A stretch of DNA of 64,000 bases from Clostridia bacterium (GTDB lineage Bacteria > Bacillota > Clostridia > TANB77 > CAG-508): assembly GCA_017404545.1 (NCBI GenBank), contig JAFRCC010000022.1:8750-72749 (forward strand). The letters run 5' to 3'. The notes below the pieces were generated by a model. That model saw nothing but the letters and a program-made list of their open reading frames with translations, had not been told where the DNA came from and ran no database searches. Each line of letters begins with the position of its first letter. Within the stretch, counting starts at the first letter, position 1. A program made the translations under genes and the position numbers. Of this stretch, positions 26,603-58,072 are shown piece by piece.

Positions 26603-27448
26603 CTAAATTTTACCTGGATACTTGCAGCATTTATCTAAATATTTATGTACAAACGAAATCATTGTCAAAACATCAAGGACTTCGCTTTCATTTTGTTTCC
26701 AATTTATTTTTGGAGTATGTGCAGCTCTGTTTCTAATTAGATGAAATAAAGAATTAAGTAGCTCTTTTAGTCCTATATATTCATTTCTTTCTGATTCTGT
26801 ATTTAGTGCATTAAATACAATGTATGGACTTTTTGTTGAGAATGCTTTATCAAATAAACTAGTACCATCCTCTGTTAATCCGGTTATTTCTCTTACTCTT
26901 TCTGCAAGTCCCTTTGTTGCTTCAAATACAGTGTCATAGTAATCTTTTCTTAGATAATCGCTTTTGCAATACCTCATTACTTCTTCATGTATATTTCTAG
27001 TATATAATTTCTCTCTAAGTGAATTAACCCTTCTGTCAACTTCGTTCAATGTTTCAGCCTTACTCGTATCAACCAATTTTCCTGACAAATTTATTTCACA
27101 TCCTATTAATAATAAAACTTTGTTAAGTTCTTCTAATATATAATTATATTTTTCACGTTGACTAATTTTTGTATAATTAACTGGACTCATAGAACTTTCT
27201 ATAAATTTTACTACTTTTTCATCAGATAAACTCTTATTCATTTCATTTGCTAAGCAGTTATATAGCCAATCCCTTTTGTTGAGTCCTATTCTGTATCCAA
27301 ATTGATTGCTATATGATCCATCACTTAATACTTCAATTCTATTTTCTACTAGATGTCGTTCCAGCTCACTCTTTGTTAAACCATTATTTGTATCTGCTAT
27401 TACTCCCGATATATTTCGTAAATCACTTTCTGTAAATATTTTTCTCAT
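26603..27448 (-). CDS. HEPN-domain protein (Abi-like, TIGR02391-type)
   Basis: C-terminal LFHLIRNRAAHTP contains the HEPN Rx4-6H motif (RNRAAH). Confidence 0.5.
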   Translation of the reverse strand: MRKIFTESDLRNISGVIADTNNGLTKSELERHLVENRIEVLSDGSYSNQFGYRIGLNKRDWLYNCLANEMNKSLSDEKVVKFIESSMSPVNYTKISQREKYNYILEELNKVLLLIGCEINLSGKLVDTSKAETLNEVDRRVNSLREKLYTRNIHEEVMRYCKSDYLRKDYYDTVFEATKGLAERVREITGLTEDGTSLFDKAFSTKSPYIVFNALNTESERNEYIGLKELLNSLFHLIRNRAAHTPKINWKQNESEVLDVLTMISFVHKYLDKCCKYPGKI

Positions 27449-27494
27449 ATGATAATCACCCCTTCATTCTTGTGCTTTTGTTATTTCATTATGT

Positions 27495-27543
27495 CAAAAA
27501 ATGTCGAAACATGCAATCATAATCGTATTGCATGTTTCGACAT
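27495..27543 (-). terminator. Rho-independent terminator, conserved hairpin family
   Basis: Perfect 17-bp stem atgtcgaaacatgcaat / attgcatgtttcgacat, with a T-run on the minus strand. Confidence 0.65.
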
Positions 27544-30093: not shown

Positions 30094-30202
30094 TCTCCTA
30101 AAGTATCCTTATTAATAATTACCACATATCATACTACAAAACTTGGCTATTTACAATATATTGAGAGTAATATTTATATTATTCTTTCTTCCCCTTTTTG
30201 AA

Positions 30203-30252
30203 TAAAAAAATGTCGAAACGTGCAATCATAATCGTATTGCATATTTCGACAT
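30203..30252 (-). terminator. Rho-independent terminator, conserved hairpin family
   Basis: Stem atgtcgaaacgtgcaat / attgcatatttcgacat, with T7 on the minus strand. Confidence 0.6.
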
Positions 30253-30265
30253 TTTTCGACTTTTC

Positions 30266-30739
30266 TTACTTTATTATTTTCTTAATTATTCCTTTTACTT
30301 TTCTCTTTACCTTTGTAACAATCGAAGTTTTAGGTACATACTTATTTACTAACTTTTCAAAATCTTGTCCCTCTCCAAGCTCAGAAAAGAATTTATCGCT
30401 ATTTGGATTTACTTTTGATGTAGTATTAAAACTAGGATTTCCACTAATAGCTTTTTCAAATTCAACTTCTTCACATATCATTGAATCCTTTATTCTGTCC
30501 ATTAGCTCTTGTCCTTTTTTAGAATTAACAACAACTAATGAAGTTCCTTTTTCATCATCAAATTCAGGTTTAACATTTTTTATTCCCCAAAAATCAGCTA
30601 ATGTTATATCTGATAAACGATTATTCTTTTTAAACTTACAATCTGTACATGATTCTCTTAAACTCATATGTTTTAGAAAGGCTTTATATACATCATCGTT
30701 ATGATTAATTAAATATAAGCTATTATTATCAAAATGCAC
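30266..30739 (-). pseudogene. Fragment: C-terminal part of an FrhB/FdhB-like (coenzyme F420 hydrogenase beta-like) protein
   Basis: 157 aa, CTDCKFKK...ADFWG. Full-length members are more than twice as long and usually pair with a polysaccharide pyruvyl transferase. The upstream 200 nt is non-coding. Confidence 0.4.
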
Positions 30740-46054: not shown

Positions 46055-46560
46055 TTATTTAATTCTTTCAATTTCCTCTTTTGTTAATTTTGTAATTTCC
46101 TCTATGGTTTCAATGCTAAAGCCTTTTTCCAGCATTCTCTTCGCAGTAGCCTTACGCCCTTCATATTCACCTCGCAGTTCAGCACTATACATATCACTAT
46201 TGTAGTCTATTCTCCATATTTCACGCTGCTCTGCCAGCTTGCGCTCTTCTTCGTCTTGGCTTATTTCTTCTAGCACTTTTCGAGCCTTTTCTATTTCTTC
46301 ATACATACTTGCCTCCTTTCCCAGCTCTAGATTCTTTATAAACCCAAGCCACTGCTCTAATTTTTCATTACCCTGTTGTTTAATATTAACTTCTAGTTTC
46401 TTTAACTCTATTATATGTAATTCAAATTTCGTTGTCAATATAATTGTTGAATACTCATCTTCTCGTATGTGCCATGAGGAATGGTACCTTTGTAGCCAAA
46501 AATTCTACAAAATACATAATCATTTGTAGGACTTAGTAATCGCTTTTCTTTTTGCATATA
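46055..46560 (-). pseudogene. Remnant of an Rpn/YhgA-like (PD-(D/E)XK putative transposase, TIGR01784-type) gene
   Basis: The C-terminal ORF (127 aa) ends KATAKRMLEKGFSIETIEEITKLTKEEIERIK. The N-terminal signature MQKEKRLLSPTNDYVFCRIFG is encoded at about 46548-46490 but is separated by stops. The nuclease core is missing. Confidence 0.5.
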
Positions 46561-46724
46561 AAATTCTCCTTTGGGATATATTTGGCTGGCCAGCCATAGA
46601 TTAAAATTTTTCATGAAATAAAAAAGAGAGCACTTATATTTCTATAAGTCTCCCTCGTCGGTTTATTATATTATTTTTTAACTCAAATTTCAAATATTTT
46701 CGTTCGTCTTTTTTTGACAAAATA

Positions 46725-48225: not shown

Positions 48226-48817
48226 TTACGCTTAATGCATTCTTTCTTGCTACTATTAATGTAGCGCCGGCAACTAACACTACTCCTGCAACTGCTATGT
48301 ATACGTAGTTTGTAGATCCTGTTTGAACTAAAGCTGGTTCTGTTGTTCCTTTACCATTCTTTACTTCAACTCCCCAATATAATGAATCTATAAATTTTCC
48401 GTTTGCATCGTATATATCTAATCTTTCTTCTGAAGCATCATATGAAACTGTTAAGTTTAAAACTGCTGCTGCATCTTTTGCAAATTGTAATAATCTTTGT
48501 TTTTTCTCCTTAGTGCTCACCTTGTTTGGAGATTTAGCACCATCTTCGTTCATATACTTTACGGCTTCATCTATATAACCTTTTATTTTTTCTGCTTGTT
48601 CATCTGTAATTTCTGTTTTCTTGAAGAAGCTTTCTAATTTTGCTTTGTCTTTGCTTCTAATTATTAATTCTGTTCCTGTAAAATCTTTTTGTGTTGTCAT
48701 ATACTCTTGTAGATCTGCTTTTGAAAAAGCATGTGATTTTGTTGCAAATATTGTTGCTGCAACTAGTAATGTAGCTACTATAGCTGTTAATTTTTTTAAA
48801 GTTTTCATTTCAATCAT
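48218..48817 (-). CDS. Cell-surface protein with a sortase-type C-terminal sorting signal
   Basis: Signal peptide MKTLKKLTAIVATLLVAATIFA. C-terminal ...ALVQTGSTNYVYIAVAGVVLVAGATLIVARKNA (motif, hydrophobic segment, basic tail). Confidence 0.5.
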   Translation of the reverse strand: MIEMKTLKKLTAIVATLLVAATIFATKSHAFSKADLQEYMTTQKDFTGTELIIRSKDKAKLESFFKKTEITDEQAEKIKGYIDEAVKYMNEDGAKSPNKVSTKEKKQRLLQFAKDAAAVLNLTVSYDASEERLDIYDANGKFIDSLYWGVEVKNGKGTTEPALVQTGSTNYVYIAVAGVVLVAGATLIVARKNALSVNA

Positions 48818-49265
48818 CCTTTCATCTATTTGTGTTTTCTTTTTTTGGCTAGGGTGATTTTACCACCTATTGTTTTGGAAATCAACCCCATTTTTAAATT
48901 TTCACTCACAAGTCACACATTATTTTTAAATTTTCACTGCGATTTTTGCTGCAATATATGTAAATTCATTTTTTTCTTCTGTTGCTCCTTAGATTTTTTT
49001 TCGTACATAACAACAATAAAAACTTGTAATTGGCAACGGTATACATCAAATATTAAAATGTATACCATTGCCAATAAAAAAAAAATATATACTAACAATT
49101 AGTTTTCTTTATAAAATTACAAATAAGTTTTTCTTATACATTAGTAACCAATACTTCTTATATATCCACCCAATAATTTAGCAGGAATAGATATTTATGT
49201 ATACTTTTATTTAAAATTTTTTCGGCGTTTTTACGCTATTCTATTAAGATTTTTCATTTAGCAGC

Positions 49266-49294
49266 TTGCATTTTACGTAAACATATGATAGAAT
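49266..49294 (+). promoter_or_regulatory. Sigma-70-type promoter of the G+C-rich cassette
   Basis: TTGCAT, 17 nt, TAGAAT. About 140 nt upstream of the first ATG. Confidence 0.5.
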
Positions 49295-49442
49295 ATTTTC
49301 TGTTATTTTCTGGAGGATTCCAAAGGTATTTTAAGCGTGGTCAGACGCCTAAAACCTACGAGGTTTATCGTATGGTTTTCAGAATTTAACGATATTTCGT
49401 ATATAAACCAAAGATGAAAAGCCAATAAGGAGGGCATATTTC

Positions 49443-50087
49443 ATGAGCAAAAAGAGCAAAAAGCGTAGCGAAGAGCGCTGCAAACAGTGCATGAACAACA
49501 AGAGCAAGAAGAGCTGCAAGCACACAAAGAACTGCGATTATGCAAAGGGCAACAAGCATTGCGTGGCAGGCAAACATCAGGATAAAGATTATTTCAATCC
49601 CAATGAACATACTCTTGATGAAATGGCTTCTATGCCAACAGACACAGTCGTTAACATGCTTCTTAACCACAACGATGGTTTCTTTGCGGATTTTGCGTAT
49701 CAGTACAGCGCAGTGATGGAAGTTTACGAGCTTATTGAGCAGTACAATGCGGTACGTGCAACATGCATGTCTAACCTGGCAAGTAACTTCAAGGCAGTTG
49801 GAATTCACAATGATGGCGACTATATCAAGCTTGACGAGCAGGTTGTGAAAATTGTGTTGCAAAGCACAAAGAGCAGTAATTTTAAACATCTGCAGGGCAT
49901 TACTAAGAAAGCTCTTCCGACTTTAAAAAAACTTAACCGTGCAATTGAACTGCTGCTGGTTGCTTTCGAGAACCATTCTGAAATGGATGACACTCAGAAG
50001 AACTTTATTAAGGGCATCATGCTTGATTCGAAAGCTGCACTTCTTGACACATTCGATTTTATTTTTTATCCAACTGAGGAGGTTTGA
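49443..50087 (+). CDS. Unknown protein (214 aa) with a basic Cys-rich N-terminus; first gene of the compositionally foreign cassette
   Basis: Strong RBS AAGGAGGG 8 nt upstream. N-terminus MSKKSKKRSEERCKQCMNNKSKKSCKHTKNCDYAKGNKHC (Cx2C...CxxxxC...C). Codon usage (AGC, CAG, GCG, CTG, AAG) is unlike every other gene in the window. Confidence 0.65.
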   Translation: MSKKSKKRSEERCKQCMNNKSKKSCKHTKNCDYAKGNKHCVAGKHQDKDYFNPNEHTLDEMASMPTDTVVNMLLNHNDGFFADFAYQYSAVMEVYELIEQYNAVRATCMSNLASNFKAVGIHNDGDYIKLDEQVVKIVLQSTKSSNFKHLQGITKKALPTLKKLNRAIELLLVAFENHSEMDDTQKNFIKGIMLDSKAALLDTFDFIFYPTEEV

Positions 50088-50091
50088 AGAA

Positions 50092-50733
50092 ATGATTAAG
50101 AGATTTTCTGAAAATGTTACTGGCGGCGACAACAACTCGGATACTCCGAACAGAGCAATGTACTCTCCCATGGAGTGTGTTAAGGACATGGCACTTGAAA
50201 GCTTGTATGAACTTATCAAAGGCAAGATGTCTACATGCGACCCATCTAATCAGCTTATTTTTAAGCGGCTGCTTGGTTATGTTGAACTGATTCAGGAGGC
50301 AGCACATTCTTATTATGAGGTAATGGAAATTATTGTTGATATGGAGCTTAACCTGATTGAGCAATTTGGTTACTCATATAACAAAAGCTCTGATGGCACA
50401 ATTGATTTCTACGAGAGCGATACATCAACAAAATCCTCAAATACGGCGGAATCTGAGAAAACTCCTCTGACTGAAAAAGCTTACCACACAATTATCAGCC
50501 ACCTTCATACGGATATTCGTGAGAATGGTATTCCCAATGATGTAAAACCGGCGTACAATCGTATGAAAGCTGTTTTGAGTAAGTTGGTTAACGGAGAAAC
50601 GCATTTTGGACTTGCGATGGCACAGGCTAGACCTTATCTGAGCAGTATCGAGGCAATGCTTTGCATTACTCAGTATTATTCCAATATGCAACTTCTGCTT
50701 TCACTCAAGAGCATGTTTGAGTCATATCGCTGA
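50092..50733 (+). CDS. Unknown protein (213 aa); second, translationally coupled gene of the foreign cassette
   Basis: RBS GAGGAGG overlaps the stop of the upstream gene, leaving a 4-nt gap. Same atypical codon usage. No recognisable motif. Confidence 0.65.
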   Translation: MIKRFSENVTGGDNNSDTPNRAMYSPMECVKDMALESLYELIKGKMSTCDPSNQLIFKRLLGYVELIQEAAHSYYEVMEIIVDMELNLIEQFGYSYNKSSDGTIDFYESDTSTKSSNTAESEKTPLTEKAYHTIISHLHTDIRENGIPNDVKPAYNRMKAVLSKLVNGETHFGLAMAQARPYLSSIEAMLCITQYYSNMQLLLSLKSMFESYR

Positions 50734-50797
50734 AAGTCGTATTGCTGATTGGCTTAGTTGCTGACCCAACTATTTCTGCAATTGAACGACATCATAA

Positions 50798-50841
50798 AAC
50801 GGAGCATAACCTGCAATAGGTATGCTCCGTTTTTTTTTTAC
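50798..50841. terminator. Bidirectional rho-independent terminator
   Basis: aacggagcata...tatgctccgtt followed by T10. Ends the cassette, and in reverse ends spoIIP. Confidence 0.7.
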
Positions 50842-50853
50842 TTAGGTTAATGT

Positions 50854-52044
50854 CTACTTTATAACCTCGTCTAAAACTTTTGATAAATATTTGGCAGCCC
50901 CTTCACATTCTTCAAGTGTATTACCTGTAGCGCCAAATTCTATTATAGTTGCTGCCGATGATAAATGTTGGTTGTATCTAGCATTTCTCACAATTATTGG
51001 CTTAAACAAACCTGGGTACATTTCATTTCCCTTTTTTTGAACTTTTATGGCAAACTCTAAATTTTTCTTCCAATTATCATGCTCTAGTCCACTTCCATCT
51101 GTCCCAATAACAAACATAATCTGCGATACATACTCATCTCCTATTTTTACTTTTGGAGCATAGCTTTCATCGCTCATAGCATCCCTATGCAAATCTATTA
51201 TAATTTGCGTTTTGGGGTTTTTCTGCAATATGGCTGACACTGTTTTTAAAGACCTGCCGTATGACCCATTATATGCTGGATAGTCATGATATGTTTTGTC
51301 GTGTATTACATTAAAGCCATAGCTTGTTAAATAAGTTTGCATAACATCCCCTACTTTAGCGACACTGTAATTTAAATCTGTTGTTCTATAATTTCCACTT
51401 TCTACATACGTACTGCTCTGCGTTTGGGTATAACTTTCGCAGGTATGTGTGTGAAATATTATTATGTTTTTATTTTCTATTTTTGAATTATTGGAAGACA
51501 AATTTAATGTATTTAAATCATATTTCGACTCGTTCTTTATTTTTACCCCATCTATTTCGTAATTATGAGTTTGCTTGTACGAAGAATTAACTACTTCTGT
51601 TTTTAAATTTTCTTCTACTTTTTCTATTTGAATTTCCTGTTGATTCTCATTATTTGTTTCTATTGTTTGCTCGGCATCAATCTTAGCATTATCATTATCT
51701 GCATTTGTACTGGCAGAAGTTGTTTCTTGATTATCATCATATTCCATATTTTCGTCATTAACGGGATTTTCTTCTTTAACTAATATTTCAGACAGCATAA
51801 GCTCTTTATCTAATAATTGCTTTGGATTAACTTTAGAAATATCAGTTATATTTGTATCTCCCATTGCTGGAATTTCTTCTGTTAAATACGAAATTGCCAT
51901 TTTCATGCTGAGCTCTGTTTTACTTAAATATTTATTCGACGCTTTAACAATTCCAACTACGGAAATTAAAATTAAGATTATTATTGCAATTTTAGGTATT
52001 TTTCTTACTATATCTTTAGTTGAAACTACCGAAACCCTAATCAT
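50854..52044 (-). CDS. spoIIP: Stage II sporulation protein P (SpoIIP)
   Basis: N-terminal TM. IIFHTHTCESY (the HTHxxE-type motif of SpoIIP) and C-terminal amidase-like region. Confidence 0.7.
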   Translation of the reverse strand: MIRVSVVSTKDIVRKIPKIAIIILILISVVGIVKASNKYLSKTELSMKMAISYLTEEIPAMGDTNITDISKVNPKQLLDKELMLSEILVKEENPVNDENMEYDDNQETTSASTNADNDNAKIDAEQTIETNNENQQEIQIEKVEENLKTEVVNSSYKQTHNYEIDGVKIKNESKYDLNTLNLSSNNSKIENKNIIIFHTHTCESYTQTQSSTYVESGNYRTTDLNYSVAKVGDVMQTYLTSYGFNVIHDKTYHDYPAYNGSYGRSLKTVSAILQKNPKTQIIIDLHRDAMSDESYAPKVKIGDEYVSQIMFVIGTDGSGLEHDNWKKNLEFAIKVQKKGNEMYPGLFKPIIVRNARYNQHLSSAATIIEFGATGNTLEECEGAAKYLSKVLDEVIK

Positions 52045-57411: not shown

Positions 57412-57575
57412 AAGTTTTACACTCCTTTTTTATTCATATGAGGCCATTTTATCATACATATTATAAAATTTGCACCCCTTTTTTCAAAAATAATGAAAAA
57501 AAAGATAAATTTTAGCCATTTGCCAAAACTTATCTTCTACTTTACTCATACTTTACTTACTTTGTTATTGTTAAC

Positions 57576-57983
57576 CTATTTTAATTTTATATTTTGCTTC
57601 TTAAATACAAATACTGCTCCACTAATCAAAATAACGGCTCCTACAACAAATATAACCTCTGTATTTGATCCTGTTGCAGGCATTTTTGTGCTTGATGCGC
57701 TACTTGTTGAAGTTGATGTAGATGTATTTGTTGTTTTTTTAGCAGCTTCTTCCTCTGCCTTCTTTTTAGCTTCCTCTTCTGCTTTCTTTTTAGCATCTTC
57801 GTCTTCTGTTGTTGTATTATTACTAGTATTGTTTTCTGGTATATTAACAAAATCTAAATCTAAACCATCAATACCATTATTTGGTTCAACTGCAAATGAT
57901 TTAGCAGATACAACTAATATAAACAAAACAGCTACAGCCAATATTTTTAATACACTTCTTATTAATTTTACATTTTCTTTCAT
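57576..57983 (-). CDS. Small surface protein with a sortase-type sorting signal
   Basis: Signal peptide. AEEEAKKK repeats. C-terminal KMPATGSNTEVIFVVGAVILISGAVFVFKKQN. RBS AAGGAG upstream. The overlapping plus-strand ORF 57493..58005 is judged antisense. Confidence 0.5.
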   Translation of the reverse strand: MKENVKLIRSVLKILAVAVLFILVVSAKSFAVEPNNGIDGLDLDFVNIPENNTSNNTTTEDEDAKKKAEEEAKKKAEEEAAKKTTNTSTSTSTSSASSTKMPATGSNTEVIFVVGAVILISGAVFVFKKQNIKLK

Positions 57984-58072
57984 CTTTCCGTTTCTCCTTT
58001 TTTAATCTTTCGTTTTATAATACAATTCTATATTTATTTTTTTTAATAGTCAACATTTTATAACAAATTTTT

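Follow-up and report, generated by a model that had tools for sequence, protein, structure and literature searches.

Complementary, invariant loops at the two ends of an orphan two-gene transcript in uncultured Clostridia: a candidate kissing contact

Introduction

Pairing of the 5' untranslated region (UTR) with the 3' UTR of one and the same bacterial messenger RNA (mRNA) is known from icaR of Staphylococcus aureus and hbs of Bacillus subtilis (PMC3868564, PMC5737220, PMC7821165). In icaR, a UCCCC stretch complementary to the Shine-Dalgarno (SD) sequence acts against the ribosome-binding site (PMC3868564); in hbs, a linear 5'-3' duplex of 14 bp protects the leader from RNase Y or J1 (PMC5737220). 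A 2021 review gives only these two and RNAIII/hld, all of them linear duplexes, as cases of 5'-3' pairing, and describes the icaR and hbs elements as not conserved even in close relatives, as is usual for 3' UTR elements; it mentions neither 'kissing' nor 'loop-loop' contacts, nor does a bacterial mRNA of chromosomal origin with a kissing contact conserved between its ends appear in it (PMC7821165). Here, we describe a cassette of two open reading frames (ORFs), located on contig JAFRCC010000022.1 of the 'Clostridia bacterium' assembly GCA_017404545.1, whose message may be closed by such a contact. We analyzed it within a stretch of 64,000 nucleotides (nt) of this contig (positions 8,750 to 72,749; referred to as the window in the following, with positions counted from its first letter).

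The closest known kind of system is the intramolecular 5'-3' UTR pairing in Firmicute mRNAs. Like icaR and hbs, the cassette has complementary segments in its 5' and 3' UTRs, through which, we propose, translation initiation or the access of RNases to the leader may be controlled. Unlike in these systems, the contact is predicted to form between two loops, to span 6-7 nt and not to involve the SD sequence, and the complementary pair is invariant in 9-11 diverged lineages.

Kissing complexes are familiar from the RNA I/RNA II pair of plasmid ColE1, which is bound by the Rop protein, and from the dimerization initiation site (DIS) of HIV-1. A kissing contact within a single message, between the 3' BYDV-like translation element (BTE) and the 5' UTR, has been described in barley yellow dwarf virus (BYDV) (PMC6614841). 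The cassette resembles these complexes in that its two stem-loops present 6-7 complementary loop bases, and the BYDV contact likewise joins the UTRs. In contrast to the cassette mRNA, however, the known examples come from antisense RNAs of plasmids or from RNAs of eukaryotic viruses, and the cassette does not belong to any of these families.

The cassette had been singled out by an original prediction, made from the nucleotide sequence alone, as a self-contained and compositionally foreign unit encoding two unrecognizable proteins. In the following, we describe its RNA elements, its distribution, its codon usage and its proteins, and weigh the explanations for them.

Complementary loops in the leader and the 3' UTR

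The most conserved part of the cassette is RNA. Two hairpins, one at either end of the message, stand out:

49331-49352, + strand: P3 hairpin of the 5' leader, with the invariant loop GGUCAG at 49339-49344
50755-50772, + strand: 3' UTR hairpin UAGUUG-CUGACC-CAACUA, with the loop CUGACC at 50761-50766, between the stop codon and the terminator

The CUGACC loop and the P3 loop are exactly complementary. CUGACC is also the only 6-mer common to the nine complete 3' UTRs available from the diverged lineages described below, while just two 6-mers are common to all nine leaders, one of which (GGTCAG) is the reverse complement of CTGACC; the probability of such a complementarity arising by chance is ~2/4096 (about 5e-4). 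The complementary pair is present in all nine lineages for which both transcript ends are available. The core six nucleotides of both loops are invariant, and the seventh position is G/C in five lineages and unpaired in four, so that the match reaches at least 7 nt in five lineages (GGUCAGG/CCUGACC or longer). In the 64-kb window, GGTCAG and CTGACC occur at these two sites only. The duplex energy amounts to -8.0 kcal/mol for 6 bp and to -11.3 kcal/mol for 7 bp; an application of RNA duplexfold to the whole UTRs gave long, uninformative duplexes.

Both segments are consistently exposed in loops. GGUCAG is found in a hairpin loop in 9/9 leaders, and the minimum-energy fold places CUGACC in the loop in 11/11 lineages, compared to 8-34% of flank shuffles per lineage. 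The supporting stems vary in sequence: the stem of the 3' hairpin shows three to five pair types per stacked position, and P3, the core of which reads GCGT-GGTCAG-ACGC in the window (49335-49348), shows two to three, with changes on both sides in four of its six pairs. Both hairpins are also kept in the absence of ORF1 and with a shortened ORF2. The P3 core corresponds to one of two perfect small hairpins that had been noted in the leader; the other, AAACCT-ACG-AGGTTT, is present in the window but not conserved.

Based on this sequence comparison, we estimate the probability that the leader and the 3' UTR engage in a kissing contact at about 0.5.

A conserved structured leader

The P3 hairpin is part of a larger folded leader with the following elements:

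49300-49445, + strand: whole 5' leader, consisting of a folded domain (P1-P4) followed by a hairpin around the SD sequence and start codon
49302-49313, + strand: 5' strand of P1, GUUAUUUUCUGG, pairing with 49379-49390
49379-49390, + strand: 3' strand of P1, UCAGAAUUUAAC, overlapping a mini-ORF at 49372-49389
49311-49322, + strand: possible small hairpin P2, UGGA/UCCA (UGGN/NCCA), which would be an alternative partner for the UGG of the P1 5' strand
49358-49371, + strand: P4 hairpin, ACGA-GGUUUA-UCGU, which differs in sequence and length among lineages
49414-49444, + strand: SD/start hairpin, AUGAAA:UUUCAU, covering the start codon's first two bases, with an inner GCC:GGC around the SD sequence AAGGAGG

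The structured leader of ~140 nt that the original prediction had proposed is backed by covariation over nine leaders. The folded domain comprises ~95 nt (the closing helix P1, P3 and P4), and the leader of the window is scored at 131 bits by our leader covariance model R1. When folded singly, each leader adopts the same architecture, consisting of P1, P3 with its GGUCAG loop, a variable P4, a linker and the SD/start hairpin. In the alignment of the nine leaders, 83.5% of the cells are paired, compared to 36-53% in slid controls, two-sided changes affect 10 of 25 pairs, and none of 500 shuffles reached the covariation score.

For P3, P4 and the SD hairpin, compensatory changes are clearly visible in the raw sequences. 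The P4 helix, [A/G]CGA-N6-UCG[U/C], is backed by A-U to G-C and other two-sided changes. In the SD/start hairpin, which is also seen in individual folds, three of four inner pairs are changed on both sides; they read GCC/GGC in the window as opposed to GGC/GCC in one of the diverged loci (L006; the handles of these loci are listed under the distribution of the cassette). P1, which takes the form GUUAUxUUCUGG with UCAGAAUUUAAC across lineages, is found in the individual minimum-energy fold of every lineage. P2, a tentative element, would compete with the inner part of P1; 93.8% of its cells are paired, with a single covarying pair, and it is absent in L026.

With its P1-closed multi-helix domain, its SD hairpin and a possible alternative pairing of CUGG, the leader resembles the riboswitch-type or protein-binding leaders of Firmicutes. 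Unlike known structured leaders, it has no match in Rfam, and we saw no terminator/antiterminator pair in it. At E <= 1, an Rfam search of positions 48800-51000 returned only chance matches to microRNAs (miRNAs) on an unrelated palindrome. In a scan of the whole window at gathering thresholds, a skipping-rope RNA (RF02924; 5282-5381, - strand; 57.5 bits, gathering score 36.7) was the sole match, with none in the leader or the 3' UTR.

The mini-ORF upstream of ORF1, for which the earlier reading had suggested a part in the leader, is indeed present in the window (49372-49389). Its start codon, however, is missing in L006 (AAG), L022 and L025, and its frame and length vary elsewhere, and we therefore reject attenuation by a leader peptide. 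Other readings of the leader were likewise discarded: the GTTA...TAAC of P1 meets the core-site consensus of an integron attC site in part only, and there is no integrase; the GGA motifs do not represent CsrA sites, as the P2 loop shows no conservation of GGA; and the leader model's second, weak match (27446-27543) falls on an unrelated palindrome. A search of the GTDB genomes with a 20-mer from the leader gave five matches in unrelated phyla, of which the one inspected (Flavobacterium) is without upstream leader sequence and due to chance. An 18-mer from the leader had no match in a metagenome collection, which evidently does not contain L006's own contig.

Promoter and terminator

The signals that would delimit the transcript are conserved as well:

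49266-49294, + strand: promoter TTGCAT (49266-49271), 17-nt spacer, TAGAAT (49289-49294)
~50796-50839, + strand: intrinsic terminator, consisting of an A-run, a long G+C-rich hairpin (GGAGCAUAACC...GGUAUGCUCC) and T10, bidirectional in form

The promoter was read directly, at the place where it had been proposed. A TG at 49286-49287 (-15/-14) marks it as an extended -10 promoter, and its spacer contains the palindrome TTTACGTAAA at 49272-49281. The same arrangement, with the spacer TTTA[C/T]GTAAA, is found in L006, L019, L020, L022, L024, L025, L026 and L028, giving a nine-lineage form of TTGCAT-N17-TAtAAT with TG at -15/-14. Judging by its sequence, the spacer palindrome is a likely operator.

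The expectation of a strong bidirectional terminator was borne out at the other end, where the 3' UTR fold has a z-score of -5.3. The terminator stem (50799-50830 in the window), GGAGCAUWACC ... GGUAUGCUCC, is kept in eight lineages. This conservation is seen although the convergent neighboring gene differs among lineages; terminator stems are usually free to drift. Together, these elements support the view that the unit is self-contained, with a promoter, a leader and a terminator of its own.

Do the ends of the message touch?

If the loops do pair, we envisage the following course. Transcription would proceed from the conserved sigma-A-type extended -10 promoter and end at the conserved intrinsic terminator. 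The P3 loop GGUCAG(G) would then engage the loop (C)CUGACC of the 3' hairpin in a kissing contact of 6-7 bp and thereby close the message; since the 3' hairpin is made last, this could only happen on complete transcripts. The contact would most likely set the lifetime or the translatability of the message. As one option, the leader might be protected against RNase Y or J1 in the manner of hbs; as another, its shape might change so as to open or close the SD hairpin, with an outcome comparable to that in icaR.

Several points weigh against such a contact. Because the loops never vary, there is no loop-loop covariation, which would be the decisive comparative signal, and their invariance could mean that each loop is recognized by something else. 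Moreover, a contact of six base pairs is short. As for the leader, the covariation set comprises only nine sequences, which are related to one another, and their alignment was fitted to the model, which favors structure. Finally, the support for P1 comes from folding only, as its sequence is almost invariant and covariation is therefore uninformative.

Accordingly, the loops might not touch at all, with each of them being bound by a separate partner, such as a protein, a small RNA or a ribosomal component, or being engaged in a tertiary contact within its own domain. This would suit their absolute invariance, which exceeds what pairing alone requires, and likewise the riboswitch-like multi-helix character of the leader, its conserved junction sequences and the possible P1/P2 alternative. 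Yet we consider it unlikely: separate partners would leave it to a chance of ~5e-4 that the leader has, among its two invariant 6-mers, the complement of the only one in the 3' UTR, they do not account for the kissing geometry in which both segments are presented in loops, and they give no reason for the neighboring base that lengthens the match in five lineages.

Distribution and genomic context

The proteins of the cassette recur, identical and in the same context, in an NCBI metagenome-assembled genome labeled 'Clostridia bacterium' and in several metagenome assemblies of the European Nucleotide Archive (ENA). With protein searches and context look-ups, we further found diverged versions of the cassette, which occupy the same slot in eleven lineages. 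The loci are:

L006/L007; L019; L020/L021; L022/L023; L024; L025; L026/L027; L028/L029; L030/L031; and the short contigs L011-L013

Wherever the flanks are visible, the cassette is encoded on the strand opposite to its neighbors and in the same orientation in every locus. The slot follows directly after the genes for a sortase and a surface protein of 196-202 residues and precedes the spoIIP region, sometimes with one or two extra genes in between. Its downstream side is variable: a gene of 393-441 codons, with the N-terminus MKxIIxRR and without a match in Pfam, lies between the cassette and spoIIP in L022, L025 and L026, two other genes (324 and 145 codons) are found there in L006, and nothing in the window and L028. 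The respective regions are:

L022, 10736-11917: downstream side of the slot
L025, 2755-4080: downstream side of the slot
L026, 3851-5107: downstream side of the slot
L006, 10680-12057: downstream side of the slot

Outside this slot, the family appears to be absent. An ORF2 profile had no relative in GTDB (one genome per species), and tblastn had no match in the phage records, the plasmid and E. coli collections being outside the search. Word-index searches of 5.8 billion proteins returned one and four clusters, and an exhaustive HMMER search of 1.84 billion representative proteins returned nine real clusters of the ORF2 family (E <= 1e-10). Given so few clusters and no relatives in GTDB or among phages, the family is limited to one small clade and one locus.

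The original prediction had interpreted the cassette as a recent acquisition or an engineered insertion and had suggested looking for an empty site in relatives. Neither interpretation is compatible with its occurrence in natural metagenomes and in the same slot of eleven diverged lineages; the slot was filled in every related lineage found. The best explanation is that the cassette represents a vertically inherited operon of one clade of low-G+C, spoIIP-carrying uncultured Clostridia.

Base composition and codon usage

The coding part of the cassette consists of two ORFs, the coordinates and lengths of which agree with the earlier description of a translationally coupled pair:

49443-50087, + strand: ORF1, 214 residues; helical bundle preceded by a basic, disordered N-terminal tail; accessory gene
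50092-50733, + strand: ORF2, 213 residues; core gene of the cassette

They are separated by 4 nt, with GAGGAGG ahead of ORF2. The earlier statement that they are the only coding sequence on the + strand of the window is probably right. Two further long + strand ORFs, at 57493-58005 and 30198-30704, overlap - strand ORFs; the former (170 codons) overlaps a 135-codon ORF at 57576-57983 (- strand) and is probably spurious, as relatives carry a - strand gene of 131-154 codons at the equivalent position.

The cassette does stand out in composition, to a smaller degree than had been estimated by eye (mid-40s versus 27% G+C): ORF1 and ORF2 have a G+C content of 41.6% and 40.5% (about 41%), respectively, compared to 28.6% for the 64-kb window. 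The contrast sits mainly at third codon positions, the G+C content of which (GC3) is 0.49 in ORF1 and 0.42 in ORF2, compared to a mean of 0.207 in 48 host ORFs (standard deviation 0.028, maximum 0.272). This places ORF1 10.2 and ORF2 7.6 standard deviations above the host mean. The same is true of the relatives, and across eight lineages, GC3 ranges from 0.39 to 0.62 in the cassette and from 0.13 to 0.29 in the flanking genes. In terms of individual codons, CAG accounts for 86% of the glutamine codons in the cassette and for 7% in the flanking genes, TTA for 4% versus 60% of the leucine codons, CTC and CTG together for 48% versus 1% of the leucine codons, and ATA for 8% versus 48% of the isoleucine codons. 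Since the contrast holds in eight lineages, the odd composition is no sign of recency. Islets of this kind are not unique to the cassette in these genomes either, given that L006 has a second one (6435-6704, - strand), with a G+C content of 0.46-0.48 compared to ~0.27 around it; it comprises an 89-codon ORF with its own SD sequence and without a match in Pfam.

At the same time, the cassette genes diverge rapidly between lineages. The median identity is 36% for ORF1 and 37.5% for ORF2, compared to 59-81% for neighboring genes; between the window and the collinear locus L028, both flanks show 77-79% DNA identity, while 48902-50875 has no BLASTN match. By contrast, copies of the same lineage from independent samples are 99.8-100% identical, and hypermutation and phase variation of the cassette can therefore be rejected. 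As dN/dS values calculated with the Nei-Gojobori method (NG86) are confounded by composition and saturation, we set them aside and instead compared synonymous codons at residues that are identical in two lineages, taking the expectation from the cassette's own codon frequencies. At these conserved residues, the synonymous choice has reached 0.90-0.94 of saturation. That each lineage nevertheless shows the same odd composition points to maintenance rather than to unfinished drift after a transfer. The persistence of this foreign-looking codon usage may be due to selection acting on translation or on the RNA, or else to biased gene conversion. The remaining alternative, which would speak against maintenance, is a repeated replacement of the cassette from an unsampled, GC-richer pool; nothing supports it, as no family member was found outside the slot.

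These data also bear on the possibility that the cassette is a foreign mobile unit from a GC-richer donor, which has either not yet drifted to the host composition or is repeatedly swapped into a hot spot, with GGTCAG and CTGACC being short inverted repeats at its DNA ends. Its atypical composition would fit, and the codon pattern, with CAG, AAG, CTT/CTG, ATC and GCA, may resemble that of Clostridia of moderate G+C content such as the Lachnospiraceae. Furthermore, its proteins are far more diverged than the flanks, the window and L028 share no nucleotide similarity across it, the gene content downstream of the slot varies, ORF1 is present or absent, ORF2 is truncated in L030 and L031, and L006 has its second G+C-rich island. 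In general, the cassette shares with acquired islets that it is sharply bounded, richer in G+C and composed of orphan genes. In contrast to them, it is fixed at one locus, lacks mobility genes and has a codon usage that outlasts synonymous turnover. All members of known context occupy the same slot in the same orientation, searches of phage records and GTDB species genomes (but not of the plasmid collection) gave no copy, and neither an integrase or transposase nor direct repeats lie alongside. The inverted match covers just 6-7 bp between differing flanks, and as each copy resides in a covarying hairpin inside the transcribed region, it points to RNA instead of DNA. Finally, codon usage is still shared among lineages whose synonymous sites are randomized, and copies within a lineage are almost identical across samples (99.8-100%). 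Taken together, we regard a mobile origin of this kind as distinctly unlikely.

Two orphan proteins

On the protein level, ORF2 is the constant component of the cassette. It is modeled as an all-helical protein with a disordered linker, and its conserved C-terminal half contains the motifs NGIP ... FGLAM.QARPYLS ... TQYYS. In L028, it is shortened to 154 residues. In L030 and L031 (294-614 in both), it is cut to 106 residues, and a - strand gene of at least 305 codons overlaps its end; we consider this a natural truncation of the cassette. The ORF1 orthologs (n=6) share a basic tail starting with MSKK and a few helix motifs. As an optional upstream partner of ORF2, ORF1 is dispensable; it is absent in L022, L024 and L028, where ORF2 occurs alone.

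That both proteins are unplaceable, as had been surmised, was confirmed with libraries that include toxin-antitoxin, defense and phage families: neither the single proteins nor all family members together had a match in Pfam, NCBIfam, PHROGs or PADLOC, and neither ORF1 nor ORF2 matched the PDB sequence profiles. No curated cut-off was reached, the best E-values (0.005-0.1) being to unrelated families by a single member each. The structural models of both proteins are generic helical bundles. Two more specific suggestions did not hold. The cysteine-rich stretch of the ORF1 product, which had been taken for a possible zinc ribbon, is a lineage-specific insertion that is absent from four of the six orthologs and without a cysteine pattern in L006; in the model, it is disordered, and residues 19-51 have a predicted local distance difference test (pLDDT) score below 50. 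Likewise, a distant paralogy between ORF1 and ORF2 found no support in hhalign, which assigned it probabilities of 0.4% (2 versus 4 sequences) and 0.3% (6 versus 11 sequences). The cassette is an undescribed unit with orphan proteins, and what is new about it now lies mostly in the RNA elements and the maintained codon usage, neither of which the original prediction had recognized as such.

A two-gene, translationally coupled unit whose proteins diverge three to four times faster than those of its neighbors, in a variable neighborhood, brings to mind a toxin-antitoxin-like or phage-defense module, in which an arms race drives the fast evolution and the RNA elements serve ordinary regulation. 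We consider this highly improbable, though, in view of the lack of PADLOC, PHROG, Pfam and NCBIfam matches and of the three lineages with ORF2 alone, which is unlike an obligate pair. Gene sizes and predicted helical-bundle folds do not suggest an enzyme, the locus is fixed in one slot, unlike moving defense islands, and there is no variation within lineages. An invertible segment or a hairpin-ended transposon (inverton, IS200/605 or REP/RAYT) is unlikely as well, given the single orientation, the match of 6-9 bp, the unrelated flanks and the absence of any recombinase-like protein in or next to the cassette.

Surrounding sequence

Three further features in the vicinity of the cassette deserve mention:

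49029-49075: perfect palindrome with an 18-bp stem (TTGGCAATGGTATACAT...ATGTATACCGTTGCCAA), upstream of the cassette promoter
48849-48870: almost invariant sequence CTAGGGTGATTTTACCACCTAT
~46055-46610, - strand: decayed-looking gene of the Rpn/YhgA type (PD-(D/E)XK)

The palindrome could be a small insertion, an operator or the remnant of a terminator. It lies in an intergenic stretch of ~330 nt (about 48900-49230) that is missing in L006, L019, L020 and L026, and Rfam gave only chance miRNA matches for it. CTAGGGTGATTTTACCACCTAT recurs in L006, L019, L020, L024 and L026, and coincides with a promoter-like site on the - strand (TTGATT-17-TAAAAT with TG), ahead of the operon for the surface protein and sortase. 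The decayed-looking gene retains an N-terminal 'LLSPTNDYVFCRIFG', a stop and a C-terminal ORF of 127 codons, and represents the patch with the second-highest G+C content in the window (0.38-0.40); at the corresponding site, L022 and L023 carry an intact PDDEXK_2 gene.

Implications

The individual observations can be combined into a more comprehensive, if improbable, scenario. In this scenario, the ends of a chromosomal mRNA would be joined by an invariant kissing contact that serves as a check for full-length transcripts or as a stability lock; one or both helical products would bind the complex or the leader for feedback, in analogy to Rop, which binds the ColE1 kissing complex; and non-host codons, poor in A-ending forms, would gate translation by tRNA or physiological state, in analogy to bldA and the TTA codon in Streptomyces. 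The cassette would then be a self-contained post-transcriptional switch of a type so far undescribed in bacteria.

For the proteins as such, the immediate biological pay-off is limited, as two orphan families are added without a functional clue. The codon usage is of more general relevance. The cassette offers a clear natural case of a codon usage that is specific to certain genes and withstands the mutational drift of the genome, and it limits the reading of atypical composition as recent transfer, an inference that is wrong in this case. Lastly, if the kissing contact is real, it would be the first end-to-end loop contact with comparative support, unchanged throughout a clade while the proteins encoded between its two halves change beyond recognition, and it would imply that end-to-end contacts in bacterial mRNAs can be under strong long-term selection.

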